Source: an uncultured Verrucomicrobiota bacterium (GTDB lineage Bacteria > Verrucomicrobiota > Kiritimatiellia > CAIQIC01 > Lenti-01). From it: a stretch of DNA of 31,058 nt. Shown here piece after piece: positions 8,840 to 10,969 of the stretch (the stretch's first letter is position 1; each line of letters starts with the position of its first letter). The notes under the pieces were generated by a model. The model had not been told where the DNA came from. It saw only the letters and a program-made list of their open reading frames with translations, and did not search any database. The DNA is taken from the NCBI GenBank assembly GCA_938003985.1, contig CALKWZ010000080.1, positions 1 to 31,058 of the forward strand. Reading direction: 5' to 3'. The translations under genes were made by a program, and so were the position numbers.

Positions 8840-9214
8840 ATGGCCATGAAGGACGCCGTTAAAATATTCGGGGCCTTGTCGGACGAAAGCCGGCTGCGCA
8901 TGCTGTTCGCGCTGCGCCGCGGCGAGCTGTGCGTCTGCCAGCTCATCGGGCTGTTGGGCCTGTCGGCCTCCACGGTGTCGAAGCACCTTTCGATCCTCCG
9001 CGATGCAGGCTGGGTGGATGCTCGCAAGCAGGGCCGCTGGGTCTACTGCCGCATGGCGGACCAGCCCCCCTTGCCCGTCATGGGAAAACGGGCCGCTCCA
9101 CTTTTCCAAGCGCTGCAACGTTCGCCGAAGGTGAAGGCGGACGACCGGCAGTTGCGGTCCATCCGGAAAATGGACGGGGAACGGCCGTGCCGGAAACTCT
9201 CCCGCAAGCCGTGA
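8840..9214 (+). CDS. arsR: ArsR-family metalloregulator (arsR2), alternative start 8846
   Basis: MAMKDAVKIFGALSDESRLRMLFALRRGELCVCQLIGLLGLSASTVSKHLSILRDAGWVDARKQGRWVYCRM; contains the ELCVCxL arsenic/antimony-type binding motif. Confidence 0.88.
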   Translation: MAMKDAVKIFGALSDESRLRMLFALRRGELCVCQLIGLLGLSASTVSKHLSILRDAGWVDARKQGRWVYCRMADQPPLPVMGKRAAPLFQALQRSPKVKADDRQLRSIRKMDGERPCRKLSRKP

Positions 9215-10224
9215 GCGCGCCCGATACATCCCGCTGCCCGCGCGTATCGTCCGCCTGGACCTGGCGGGACCGCCTCGGCGCCGTCGGCGTCCGCCTGGGA
9301 TTTCGCCGCATGCGGTATGCCATCCGGCCAGGGCTATCTGCGCTCGGCCACCCCGGCCCGGAGTCGCCCGTGTTCGTGACGGCGAACTACAAACTGTCCT
9401 TCGACCATCTGCGCCGCGCGCTGGCAGGCATCGATGGGTGGATCCTCGCGCTCGACACGAAGGGCGTGAACGTCTGGTGCGCGGCCGGCGAAGGGAATTT
9501 CAGCACGGAGGAACTGGTGCGCCGGCTGCGCGACGTGCAACTGGACCAAGTGGTTTCCCACCGCAATCTCATTCTGCCGCAACTGGCGGCGCCCGGCGTG
9601 AATGCGTTCGAAGCGACGAAGTTGTCGGGATTCCGCGTGGTCTATGGTCCGGTCTACGCCCGGGACCTTCCCCGTTTTCTGGCGGCCGGCTGCACCGCAA
9701 CGACCGACATGAGACGCGTCCATTTCCGCTGGCATGAGCGGCTGGCCGTGGCGCCGCTGGAACTGGTCATCCATTTCAAACGGGCGTTGCTCGCGGGCCT
9801 GGCATTGGCTCTTCTCGCGGGCATTTCTCCCGCCGGCTTTTCCTGGAGCCGAATGACATCCTTGGGTGGCTTGGCTCTCGCGTTATGGGTGGCCGCCTAC
9901 GTCCTTGCGGGCCTCCTCGGCCCCTTGCTCTTGCCGTGGCTGCCCATGCGCGCCTTCGCGCTCAAAGGCGCCGCGCTGGGCGCGGCGCTCGCCGCCGCCG
10001 GTCTGGCGACCTTCGGCGCATCGTGGCCTTTCCTCCGGATGGCGGCCTGGCTGCTGCTCGTCGCCACCGGAACTTCGTTCCTGCTTCTGAACTTCACGGG
10101 CTGCACGACGTTCACTTCGCCCTCCGGCGTCCGGCGCGAAGTCCGCTGGGCGCTCCCGGCGCAGTCGGCGGGCGCGGCCATCGGTCTCGCGGCTTGGGCG
10201 CTGGCGGGCTGGCAAATGCCATGA
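9211..10224 (+). CDS. hgcA: Mercury methylation corrinoid protein HgcA
   Basis: Corrinoid-binding domain SPVFVTANYKLSFDHLRRALAGIDGWILALDTKGVNVWCAAGEGNFSTEELVRRL...VVSHRNLILPQLAAPGVNAFEATKLSGFRVVYGPVYARDLPRFLAAG...MRRVHF, followed by several TM helices and ..LLLNFTGCTTFTSPSGVRREVRWALP. GTG start at 9211 overlaps the arsR2 stop (GTGA). Confidence 0.93.
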   Translation: MSAPDTSRCPRVSSAWTWRDRLGAVGVRLGFRRMRYAIRPGLSALGHPGPESPVFVTANYKLSFDHLRRALAGIDGWILALDTKGVNVWCAAGEGNFSTEELVRRLRDVQLDQVVSHRNLILPQLAAPGVNAFEATKLSGFRVVYGPVYARDLPRFLAAGCTATTDMRRVHFRWHERLAVAPLELVIHFKRALLAGLALALLAGISPAGFSWSRMTSLGGLALALWVAAYVLAGLLGPLLLPWLPMRAFALKGAALGAALAAAGLATFGASWPFLRMAAWLLLVATGTSFLLLNFTGCTTFTSPSGVRREVRWALPAQSAGAAIGLAAWALAGWQMP

Positions 10225-10541
10225 AATATCTGTCGGACCAAATCAGCCTGCGATTGGATGCCGGGCGTTGCATTGGCTGCGGCCTGTGCGAAACGGTTTG
10301 CCCCCATGGCGTGTTCCTCGTTCAGCGGGGAAAAGCGCAGATCCGGGATCGCGACGCCTGCATCGAATGCGGGGCGTGCGCGCGGAATTGTCCCGTCGAC
10401 GCCATCGCCGTCGACAGCGGCGTCGGCTGCGCCCAGGCCATCATCAACGGCTTGCTGACGGGCCAGGAAACCTGCTGCGGCGAACGTTCCTGCTGCGGCG
10501 CGAAACCAACGGAAAAACGCCGGGCGGGATTGATCCCATGA
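10221..10541 (+). CDS. hgcB: HgcB, 2x[4Fe-4S] ferredoxin partner of HgcA
   Basis: 106 aa MKYLSDQISLRLDAGRCIGCGLCETVCPHGVFLVQRGKAQIRDRDACIECGACARNCPVDAIAVDSGVGCAQAIINGLLTGQETCCGERSCCGAKPTEKRRAGLIP; two CxxCxxCxxxC clusters, GVGCA motif and vicinal Cys at the C-terminus; ATGA overlap with hgcA. Confidence 0.93.
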   Translation: MKYLSDQISLRLDAGRCIGCGLCETVCPHGVFLVQRGKAQIRDRDACIECGACARNCPVDAIAVDSGVGCAQAIINGLLTGQETCCGERSCCGAKPTEKRRAGLIP

Positions 10542-10969
10542 CAACCAGGATCCTTTTCCTGTGCACCGGCAATTCCTGCCGCAGCCAGATGGCCGAAGGC
10601 TGGGCCCGCGCCCTCAAGGGCGACCGGATCGACGCCTTCTCCGCCGGCATCGAGACCCACGGCCTCAATCCCCGCGCCGTGCAGGTCATGGCCGAGGCGG
10701 GCGTGGACATCTCCGGCCACCGTTCCAAGACCGTCGCGGACCTGCCGACGAAGGACTTTGACTACGTCGTGACCGTCTGCGACCACGCCCACGAGTCCTG
10801 CCCCCTCTTCCCCGGCAACACCAAGGTGGTCCACGTCGGCTTCGACGATCCCCCGCGGCTGGCCAAAGGGGCGAAGACCGAGCAGGAAGCCCTTGCCCAC
10901 TATCGCCGCGTCCGCGATGAGATCAGAGCCTTTATCCAAACCTTGCCGGAGAGTTTGAAGGAAAGATGA
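10538..10969 (+). CDS. arsC: Arsenate reductase, low-MW phosphatase fold, thioredoxin-coupled type
   Basis: MTTRILFLCTGNSCRSQMAEGWARALKGDRIDAFSAGIETHGLNPRAVQVMAEAGVDISGH...VVTVCDHAHESCPLFPG; CX5R P-loop plus the two resolving cysteines. ATGA overlap with hgcB. Confidence 0.93.
   Translation: MTTRILFLCTGNSCRSQMAEGWARALKGDRIDAFSAGIETHGLNPRAVQVMAEAGVDISGHRSKTVADLPTKDFDYVVTVCDHAHESCPLFPGNTKVVHVGFDDPPRLAKGAKTEQEALAHYRRVRDEIRAFIQTLPESLKER

Follow-up and report, generated by a model that had tools for sequence, protein, structure and literature searches.

The mercury-methylation genes hgcA and hgcB of the DNA analyzed here, a stretch of 31,058 nucleotides to which we refer as the window, are placed between the gene of an ArsR-family regulator, arsR2, and an arsenate reductase gene, arsC. 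Judging from their spacing, these four genes probably form one polycistronic operon that probably extends into the arsenite permease gene acr3, and this operon is probably ArsR-repressed and As(III)-inducible. We consider it likely that HgcAB is made in an arsenic response from an ArsR2-repressed arsR2-hgcA-hgcB-arsC(-acr3) unit. The locus is a clean new example of a published arrangement and not a discovery; what appears to be new is a conserved promoter together with a putative inverted-repeat operator (ATTTCG-N8-CGAAAT) upstream of arsR2. The prediction of methylmercury production from gene surveys is limited by what is known of the native function and the regulation of hgcAB. The locus opens no new question but serves as a test case of unusual clarity: hgcAB is wired by overlapping codons between an R773-type ArsR and an ArsC, behind a promoter and operator that in relatives also precede arsC-arsM-acr3, which offers a defined DNA site and a regulator for probing possible arsenic control. 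The idea of an arsenic link has been put forward before (Gionfriddo et al.), and to it the locus adds the physical joining of the genes and a shared operator.

Table 1. Features of the arsenic island and of the hgcAB genes within it (positions in the window)
Feature	Position	Strand	Description
Upstream operon	5066-8753	+	organoarsenical-resistance type
arsR1	5066-5374	+	upstream operon
ArsP-like permease	5384-6760	+	upstream operon
ArsE-like thioredoxin-fold protein	6775-7008	+	upstream operon
Thioredoxin (trx)	7016-7612	+	upstream operon
DsbD/ArsG-like membrane protein	7609-8310	+	upstream operon
ArsF-family protein	8307-8753	+	upstream operon
Predicted promoter	8787-8815	+	sigma70-like, TTGACG-17-TATATT; in the 92-nt arsF/arsR2 intergenic gap
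Putative ArsR2 operator	8811-8832	+	ATTTCG (8813-8818), 8-nt spacer, degenerate CGAATC (8827-8832)
arsR2	8846-9214	+	ArsR/SmtB-family repressor, 122 aa (124 aa from ATG 8840)
hgcA	9187-10224	+	corrinoid protein; cap helix NVWCAAGE; C-terminal membrane domain with FTSPSGV
hgcB	10221-10541	+	2x[4Fe-4S] ferredoxin, 106 aa; CIECGA, GVGCA, two C-terminal CC pairs
arsC	10538-10969	+	thioredoxin-coupled arsenate reductase, LMW-PTP type, 143 aa
acr3	11057-12250	+	arsenite efflux permease; ATG 11057 after CAGGAG; ORF opens with TTG 11039

On the + strand, arsR2 is followed by hgcA, hgcB, arsC and then acr3. The arsR2/hgcA junction is GTGA (9211-9214), a 4-nt overlap if hgcA starts at GTG 9211, and the hgcA/hgcB and hgcB/arsC junctions are both ATGA (10221-10224 and 10538-10541, the arsC ATG overlapping the hgcB TGA), leaving zero intergenic space at all three. 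Two starts are possible for hgcA: GTG 9211 yields 337 aa and the same 4-nt overlap as in the related loci L081 and L082, and GTG 9187 yields 345 aa and a 28-nt overlap, as called in an identical protein (P0001) and in P0002-4. With either start, hgcA overlaps arsR2. For arsR2, ATG 8846 is a more likely start than ATG 8840, given the AAGGA Shine-Dalgarno sequence at 8836-8840 and the gene call on an identical public contig. Much of the original prediction is borne out by these data, namely the start/stop overlaps, the gene identities, which agree with family profile scores and motifs, and the tight packing of the four genes within an arsenic island, with arsR1-arsP-arsE-trx-dsbD-arsF upstream and acr3 downstream. 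It had also regarded the translational coupling of hgcAB to arsC as unusual. The same 4-nt overlaps are found in the upstream operon, at trx/dsbD and dsbD/arsF, indicating that they are the normal operon style of this genome and nothing special to hgcAB-arsC. Together, the upstream operon and arsR2-hgcAB-arsC-acr3 make up the island that holds hgcAB. Recent horizontal acquisition was considered and rejected, as the GC content stays within 63-70% without any anomaly and a tRNA gene is absent.

A search with HgcA and HgcB profiles, proposed with the original prediction as a check, exceeded the equivalog cut-offs for both proteins. HgcA scores 394.5 bits against NF040863 (cut-off 275), outscoring the HgcAB-fusion model (HgcAB_like, 200 bits, below its cut-off of 285) and the ACDS gamma model (66 bits), and HgcB scores 116.4 bits against NF040864 (cut-off 99). 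An AF2 model of HgcA (pLDDT 87.8) displays a CFeSP-like corrinoid domain, with a cap helix at residues 96-102 that bears C98, followed by a C-terminal membrane domain of five helices (197-210, 220-251, 257-279, 282-301 and 312-340); a hydropathy scan places four segments above threshold. The top Foldseek match is 9a0b_A, a model of HgcAB from Pseudodesulfovibrio mercurii ND132 (TM 0.70), followed by the CFeSP structures 2ycl, 2h9a and 4djd. No solved HgcA structure was found: the sequence matches are to CFeSP alone, and the best fold is the 2020 integrative model. We rejected the possibility that hgcA is a pseudogene or degenerate copy, since the gene is complete, exceeds the profile cut-off and is under purifying selection (dN/dS 0.18-0.27).

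Among the motifs on which the HgcA and HgcB assignments had been based, FTSPSGV, the two CxxCxxCxxxCP clusters, CIECGA, GVGCA and the two CC pairs stand, and the cap helix proves non-canonical. It reads NVWCAAGE, with the cysteine and seven of the eight positions of the canonical motif present but with a terminal E in place of K. The general motif is N(V/I)WC(A/S)(A/G/S)GK, its Co-ligating cysteine being Cys93 in ND132, and a high-stringency list comprises NVWCAAGK, NVWCASGK, NVWCAGGK, NIWCAAGK, NIWCAGGK and NVWCSAGK (PMC10087281). Because its cap helix ends in E, HgcA deviates from every motif of the verified methylators on this list and qualifies solely by the moderate (bit-score) criterion of the same protocol, according to which no isolate without a listed motif has been shown to methylate Hg. 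We found no tested isolate in the literature that belongs to this clade or has a cap helix ending in E. The K-to-E change is common to the nearest relatives (P0001-4, 6, 8 and 9) and arose independently in L057. A tie between this change and the ars context was rejected, given that the K-type relatives L081 and L001 share that context. Since the position aligns with Ala in CFeSP, CFeSP is uninformative on it. We infer Hg(II) methylation by HgcA as a possible activity from its sequence, and the implied control of methylmercury formation was overstated, the HgcA of this clade having K-to-E in a motif required for a confident methylator call. The NVWCAAGE clade consists of abundant PVC-type genes, and its failure to pass the high-stringency filter means that it may be under-counted in hgcA surveys if its members are Hg methylators, or over-interpreted if they are not.

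HgcB, whose gene adjoins hgcA, contains CX2CX2CX3CP at 17-28 (Cys17/20/23/27) and at 47-58 (Cys47/50/53/57), CIECGA at 47-52, GVGC70A (the Cys73-equivalent cysteine), and vicinal cysteines at 85/86 and 91/92. Extra HgcB thiols as As(III) ligands in ars-linked loci were considered and rejected, the ars-linked proteins having no more of them than the unlinked ones (tail cysteines, p = 0.12; CC pairs, p = 0.63; Mann-Whitney). The best PDB matches of ArsC are the Bacillus subtilis and Staphylococcus aureus pI258 enzymes (1JL3, E 2e-37; 1LJL, E 7e-35). Its CX5R loop is C9-TGNSC-R15, and Cys9/81/88 align with Cys10/82/89 of both structures, as expected for a thioredoxin-coupled enzyme. TIGR02691 is its best-scoring family, at 153.1 bits yet below the equivalog cut-off of 174.3; Acr3 exceeds the equivalog cut-off of TIGR00832 (367 bits against 283).

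The occurrence of arsR, arsC and acr3 beside hgcAB has been described by McDaniel in 2020 (PMC7438021, Fig. 6), by Gionfriddo in 2022/2023 (10.1101/2022.10.17.512643; AEM 2023) and, mostly in Kiritimatiellae, by Peterson in 2025 (PMC11984097, Fig. 4c), and the proposed synteny search reveals the identical arsR-hgcA-hgcB-arsC-acr3 order in L001, a Kiritimatiellia MAG. The arrangement is therefore not unusual, as it had been taken to be. Like the published metagenome loci (PMC7438021, PMC11984097), the window has an ArsR-like gene right before hgcA, arsC and acr3 nearby, and a PVC lineage. It differs from them in its three 4-nt overlaps with nothing between hgcB and arsC, in a cap helix that ends in E rather than K, and in the organoarsenical-type operon directly upstream. 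In a lake, hgcA genes preceded by arsR, mostly from Kiritimatiellae, had lower hgcA/gyrB transcript ratios (PMC11984097). In a survey of 80 reference genomes, arsC or acr3 lay no more than 7.5 kb from hgcA in 23 and not in the other 57. In L081, L082, L084 and L085 the gene order is rearranged, yet the genes remain tightly packed. Relatives differ in what separates hgcB from arsC (nothing, CMD, dsbD or several kb). In L084 and L085, hgcA comes immediately after DGC-trx-dsbD, and the L081 cluster includes an arsM-like SAM-methyltransferase gene. Overall, hgcAB is linked to ars genes in three or more phylum-level groups whose gene orders differ, and hgcAB lies within ars operons of several arrangements across PVC bacteria and Bacteroidota. 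Compared with the classical arsRC/acr3 operons of S. aureus pI258 and B. subtilis, which likewise have an autoregulated ArsR, an LMW-PTP-type ArsC with a Cys10/82/89 triad and an arsenite exporter, the window has HgcAB inserted between regulator and reductase.

The predicted promoter before arsR2 is the single promoter-like match across 4800-12500 (7.7 kb) in a sigma70 consensus scan. Scans of this kind are weak evidence; PVC promoters are poorly known, and real ones may be missed. A TTGACR-17/19-TATATT element also lies upstream of arsR in L001, L081 and L082, and promoter and operator are conserved in the window and in these three loci. The left half-site of the operator, ATTTCG, overlaps the promoter -10 element, and a palindrome specific to the window, TAACGAATCGTTA, lies at 8824-8836. 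The operator was found solely by aligning the upstream regions of relatives; a generic inverted-repeat search of 8740-8860 returned nothing. The pattern ATATTTYGYYANNTNACGAA occurs once in the window and not at all in 100 shuffles. The motif precedes arsR in L082 and has two copies in L081, one before arsR-hgcAB and one before arsC(-arsM-acr3); in Bacteroidota, too, it stands at the head of ars operons that contain hgcAB. Perfect ATTTCG-N8-CGAAAT sites number five in 849 kb of loci, compared with none in shuffles, and each of the five has an ars gene 33-56 nt downstream. The right half-site of the window has two mismatches, so that repression there could be weak or altered.

ArsR2 scores 91 bits against NF033788 (cut-off 55) and 60 bits against the winged-helix family PF01022 (HTH_5). 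Its alpha3 helix reads ELCVCQL, with Cys31 and Cys33 (124-aa numbering), and there is one further C-terminal cysteine. This is an R773-type alpha3 metalloid site in which two cysteines are present and the third is absent; two cysteines suffice in the R773 ArsR (as cited in 10.1101/2022.10.17.512643), and C-(V/A)-C is kept in all eight of the hgcA-linked ArsRs compared. Because ArsR2 lacks an equivalent of Cys37 of R773 ArsR and shares CVC with the Cd/Pb-sensing CadC, its inducer is not certain. In ND132, an ArsR upstream of hgcAB is co-transcribed with these genes, regulates them and responds to As, and ars operons are co-induced (10.1101/2022.10.17.512643). The window resembles ND132 arsR2 (DND132_1054)-hgcA-hgcB in having an ArsR-family gene upstream of hgcAB. 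In ND132, by contrast, hgcAB is not flanked by further ars genes, and the HgcA is that of a proven methylator with canonical NVWCAAGK. In the ND132 regulator, four cysteines (Cys47/49/86/88) form a site away from the classical alpha3 position, unlike the alpha3 C-V-C of ArsR2; this regulator also responds to SAH, so the ND132 results extend to ArsR2 only by analogy. ArsR-dependent, arsenic-responsive control of the operon is plausible, and it is now better founded than in the original prediction in view of the alpha3 C-V-C, the lone promoter before arsR2 and a conserved promoter/operator that is reused before arsC-arsM-acr3 in L081. For thiol-stress control, we found no supporting evidence.

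These observations are consistent with the following model. In a host that appears to be a high-GC PVC-group bacterium (Kiritimatiellota/Lentisphaerota-like), transcription would begin at a sigma70-type promoter in the gap after arsF, and ArsR2 would bind the inverted repeat overlapping the -10 element and repress its own operon. Binding of As(III) or Sb(III) to the alpha3 Cys-Val-Cys, possibly together with the C-terminal cysteine, would release the repressor, and overlapping stop and start codons would couple translation of HgcA, HgcB and ArsC. ArsC would reduce arsenate with thioredoxin and Acr3 would export arsenite. HgcA, which has a membrane domain, would carry methyl groups on a Cys-on corrinoid, with HgcB as the ferredoxin that reduces it. 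Lying within an ArsR2-controlled operon, both would be made as part of the arsenic response, with Hg(II) methylation as either a real or a side activity of HgcAB.

We regard as unlikely a different reading, in which the HgcAB of this clade takes an active part in the handling of arsenic or organoarsenicals and Hg methylation is incidental or even lost. HgcAB might, for example, transfer methyl groups to As(III) in a corrinoid-dependent reaction, and ArsP or Acr3 might export the products. Several observations point in this direction: the varied ars operons that hold hgcAB in PVC bacteria and Bacteroidota, the operator common to hgcAB and arsC-arsM-acr3 in L081, hgcA following DGC-trx-dsbD in L084 and L085, the ArsP, ArsE-like, trx and dsbD genes just upstream in the window, and the clade-specific K-to-E change. 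In addition, the ND132 'operon C' (ArsP, ArsE and a DGC protein) is arsenic-co-induced with hgcAB, and an ND132 delta-hgcAB strain is more sensitive to As(V) (10.1101/2022.10.17.512643). However, the arsM-like gene in the L081 cluster makes the need for a second As methylase less than obvious, 57 of the 80 reference loci have neither arsC nor acr3 within 7.5 kb, HgcB proteins of ars-linked and unlinked loci do not differ in their number of tail cysteines, and other native roles have been proposed, namely antimicrobial (PMC10083202) and halomethane dehalogenation (10.64898/2026.04.26.720869). It is likewise doubtful that HgcAB is a genuine ArsR-controlled component of arsenic/organoarsenical detoxification in the PVC clade and in the Bacteroidota operons with the same operator, Hg methylation being a side reaction. 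HgcAB may in that case transfer methyl groups to As(III) or a thio-arsenical alongside ArsP/ArsE/Trx/DsbD and ArsC/Acr3, and the K-to-E variant could mark a lineage drifting from Hg chemistry.

It is quite improbable that the co-location is functionally neutral, with hgcAB riding a metal(loid)-resistance island or sharing a convenient promoter. ArsR2 may then sense a signal that is not arsenic, for instance SAH, Cd/Pb/Zn or the redox state, in keeping with the many effectors of ArsR/SmtB proteins, with SmtB and CadC as the closest PDB relatives of ArsR2, and with the SAH response of the ND132 regulator (10.1101/2022.10.17.512643); the variable content between hgcB and arsC among relatives also fits. 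Against this, hgcAB and ars genes are found together again and again, in three or more phylum-level groups and in differing orders, the operator is common to bona fide ars units, the ArsR CVC motif is conserved, and a compositional sign of recent insertion is absent.

That internal promoters or processing split hgcAB off from arsR2 or from arsC-acr3, the overlaps reflecting mere genome compaction, is very unlikely: 4-nt overlaps are the norm in the operons of this genome, arsC of L081 has its own promoter and operator, and a scan could miss some PVC promoters, but there is zero intergenic space at three junctions, the contiguous order is identical in L001, and within 8840-10969 the sigma70-like scan found no promoter-like match and the lone + strand terminator-like match (9909-9923, within hgcA) is at background frequency. 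Farther downstream, acr3 starts 87 nt past the end of arsC, a gap that could hide an unrecognised promoter or terminator. No terminator-like site was found on the + strand in this interval (10969-11057), and in L001 and L084 arsC directly adjoins acr3.

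The hgcA product scores 394.5 bits against the NCBIfam equivalog model NF040863 (cut-off 275) and far lower against rival models for HgcAB fusions (200 bits) and CFeSP/ACDS-gamma proteins (66 bits), bearing out the original prediction that it is HgcA and not a generic CdhD/CFeSP protein. In an AlphaFold2 model built with 31 homologues (pLDDT 87.8), the Cys lies on a short helix and five helices form the C-terminal part. The top structural match is the integrative HgcAB model 9a0b (TM 0.70) of Pseudodesulfovibrio mercurii ND132, a proven methylator, followed by CFeSP large subunits; a search of the PDB for an experimental HgcA structure found none. 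The identity proposed for HgcB holds as well, with 116.4 bits on NF040864 (cut-off 99), both CX2CX2CX3CP clusters, CIECGA, GVGCA and two vicinal Cys pairs. ArsC carries the CX5R loop and Cys triad typical of thioredoxin-coupled reductases and matches the B. subtilis and S. aureus pI258 enzymes (E ~1e-37 to 1e-35), scoring 153 bits against a TIGR02691 cut-off of 174, and Acr3 scores above its family cut-off. With dN/dS of 0.18-0.27 against three relatives, hgcA is under purifying selection.

The cap-helix motif, also put forward as a mark of HgcA, is present, but its final Lys is Glu (NVWCAAGE). Under the consensus protocol of Capo et al. 2022, an hgcA counts as high-stringency only with one of six motifs, each of which ends in GK, and the protocol states that Hg methylation has been shown for no isolate without them (PMC10087281). 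The change is clade-specific: among the 120 best HgcA homologues, eight share it, all within the nine closest. NVWCAAGE is also found in a second, unrelated lineage, the uncultured bacterium of locus L057 (HgcA ~46% identical), so the change arose more than once. Nor is it tied to the arsenic context, since K-type relatives (L081, L001) share the neighbourhood.

Within 8840-10969 lie four successive ORFs joined, as predicted, by start/stop overlaps (GTGA, ATGA and ATGA), with small corrections to the arsR2 and hgcA starts. For arsR2, an AAGGA ribosome-binding site favours the later ATG, which is also the start called for an identical contig in the public data. Starting hgcA at GTG 9211 gives 337 aa, a GTGA overlap with arsR2 and a geometry shared with relatives L081 and L082; GTG 9187 gives 345 aa and a 28-nt overlap, and is the start called for a 100% identical database protein (P0001) and the nearest relatives. 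The trx/dsbD and dsbD/arsF junctions of the operon just upstream are also 4-nt overlaps, and such overlaps are therefore ordinary tight packing in this genome and not peculiar to hgcAB-arsC.

Features of the window and of related hgcA loci
Locus	Feature	Position	Strand	Remark
Window	palindrome upstream of arsR1	5033-5061		perfect, ATATACACATAT/ATATGTGTATAT
Window	arsR1	5066-5374		first gene of upstream unit
Window	sigma70-like promoter	8787-8815		TTGACG-17-TATATT
Window	ribosome-binding site	8836-8840		AAGGA
Window	arsR2	8840 or 8846 to 9214	+	ATG 8846 preferred
Window	hgcA	9211 or 9187 to 10224	+	two possible GTG starts
Window	hgcB	10221-10541	+	ATGA overlap with hgcA
Window	arsC	10538-10969	+	ATGA overlap with hgcB
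Window	acr3	from ATG 11057	+	87 nt beyond arsC
Window	Na/Pi-cotransporter-PhoU genes	12338-18719		three in tandem
Window	PIF1-like helicase	28037-30142		C-terminal HRDC domain
L050	perfect half-site pair	1772-1791		~40 nt upstream of arsE
L069	perfect half-site pair	726-745		~40 nt upstream of arsE
L081	hgcB with extension	5796-6824		342 aa in total
L029	hgcB with extension	from ~1917
L082	CMD/AhpD-like gene	9339-9566
L084	CMD/AhpD-like gene	3225-3446
L085	CMD/AhpD-like gene	2151-2372
L084	DGC-domain gene (PF08859)	174-551		ahead of trx-dsbD-hgcA
L082	arsC	13754-14198		two overlapping calls, 47 + 108 aa

The sole sigma70-like promoter match in 4800-12500 lies in the 92-nt arsF/arsR2 gap. When this region was aligned with those of L001, L081 and L082, TTGACR-17/19-TATATT proved conserved upstream of arsR, with a conserved TCGYYAnnTnACGAAAT after it; the latter forms an inverted repeat, ATTTCG-N8-CGAAAT, that overlaps the -10 element. 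This putative operator motif is unique in the window (0 matches in 100 shuffles). The perfect half-site pair has five copies in 849 kb of loci, versus zero in 20 shuffles, and each copy lies 33-56 nt ahead of an arsR, arsE or arsC gene. Bacteroidota hold two of the five, so the putative operator is conserved across phyla. In one of these (L050), arsE starts a tightly packed same-strand array of ~13 genes (~7.6 kb) containing arsC, hgcA, hgcB and acr3; in the other (L069), the same ars and hgc genes lie downstream of the site on the same strand. L081 has two copies of the motif, one ahead of arsR-hgcAB and one, with its own TTGACA-17-TATATT, ahead of arsC-arsM-acr3; these two units are merged into one in the window. 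Taken together, the sequences give evidence that the hgcAB pair and the arsenic genes belong to a single ArsR regulon in these lineages. The right half-site in the window, CGAATC, has two mismatches, which could weaken or alter repression there.

In all eight ArsRs linked to hgcA, alpha3 contains C-(V/A)-C and a further Cys is C-terminal; the alpha3 motif resembles that of R773 ArsR and is unlike the four-Cys site in the regulator of ND132. Because CadC carries the motif as well, inducers other than As(III) are possible, although As(III) is the likeliest. In the best-supported reading, ArsR2 would autoregulate its operon, with As(III) the probable inducer, and HgcA, HgcB, ArsC and likely Acr3 would be co-produced. 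We consider this operon and regulon structure likely, and hold As(III) as inducer with less confidence. The original interpretation is borne out in part: the suggested arsenic-responsive control of hgcAB is plausible, and the putative operator and alpha3 Cys motif give it a better foundation. The locus offers a compact experimental handle, with a defined regulator, a defined putative operator and the K-to-E variant.

A direct role of HgcAB in arsenic chemistry is unlikely: its repeated joining to ars genes in varied arrangements and the ND132 phenotypes speak for such a role, but L081 has an arsM-like gene, most hgcAB loci lack ars neighbours and the HgcB tail-cysteine test was negative. Native functions proposed for HgcAB are production of antimicrobial MeHg (PMC10083202) and halomethane dehalogenation (bioRxiv 10.64898/2026.04.26.720869). 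Somewhat less probable still is a functionally neutral linkage, or an ArsR2 that senses a non-arsenic effector, as the CadC likeness would allow. That the overlapping genes form separate transcription units is very improbable.

The placement of hgcAB in an arsenic-detoxification island is confirmed by acr3 downstream and, upstream, by arsR1 followed by genes for an ArsP-like permease, an ArsE-like thioredoxin-fold protein, thioredoxin, a DsbD/ArsG-like membrane protein and an ArsF-family protein. ArsR1 lacks ELCVC, carrying instead DCCV and a C-terminal ACPC; its gene is preceded by an AT-rich palindrome with nested repeats, probably a distinct ArsR1 operator, in a window that is otherwise 66% GC. 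These differences suggest that the upstream operon is controlled separately. Neither a GC anomaly nor a flanking tRNA was found around the island. Directly after acr3 come the three tandem Na/Pi-cotransporter-PhoU genes, the first of which carries a fused PstS-like periplasmic-binding domain; these genes may be tied to phosphate/arsenate discrimination. The PIF1-like helicase has no bearing on the hgcAB locus.

The arrangement is not unusual, contrary to what had been claimed, and specialists would know it from publications of 2020-2025. McDaniel et al. 2020 reported acr3, arsC, arsM and arsR flanking hgcAB in diverse MAGs (PMC7438021). Gionfriddo et al. described control of ND132 hgcAB by an upstream ArsR responding to arsenic and SAH, and, for other genomes, hgcAB co-located with arsC, arsB and arsM (bioRxiv 10.1101/2022.10.17.512643). 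Peterson et al. 2025 found many hgcA genes preceded by an arsR-like gene, then with acr3 or arsC nearby too, most commonly in Kiritimatiellae and accompanied by lower hgcA expression (PMC11984097). In our synteny survey of 80 species-representative genomes, arsC and/or acr3 lie <=7.5 kb from hgcA at 23 loci. The contiguous order arsR-hgcA-hgcB-arsC-acr3 is identical in a Kiritimatiellia MAG (L001) and kept, with inserted genes, in Lentisphaerae/Victivallis loci L029 and L033; Bacteroidales typically have arsC-hgcA-hgcB-acr3, and Syntrophorhabdus-type loci (L049, L079) a divergent arsR-acr3. The rarer detail is hgcB directly abutting arsC, in the window and L001 (192 nt apart in L047).

The closest relatives of the window HgcA (70-80% identity) show modular variants: arsR/hgcA/hgcB/dsbD, then arsC-arsM-...-acr3 (L081); arsR/hgcA/hgcB/CMD with arsC/acr3 further downstream (L082); and DGC/trx/dsbD/hgcA/hgcB/CMD/arsC/acr3 with arsR absent directly upstream (L084, L085). 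The CMD/AhpD-like gene (73-75 aa), absent from the window, overlaps hgcB by 11 nt and directly precedes arsC in L084 and L085. A DGC domain also occurs in ND132 'operon C' (ArsR5-ArsP-ArsE-DGC), arsenic-co-induced with hgcAB. In L081 and L029, close PVC relatives (L029 labelled Lentisphaerae), HgcB is an unusual fusion, running on into a ~240-360 aa extension that includes a hydrophobic segment and whose conserved C-terminal region closes with Cys-rich GCGP motifs. The fragmented arsC of L082 suggests a frameshift, from a pseudogene or an assembly error.
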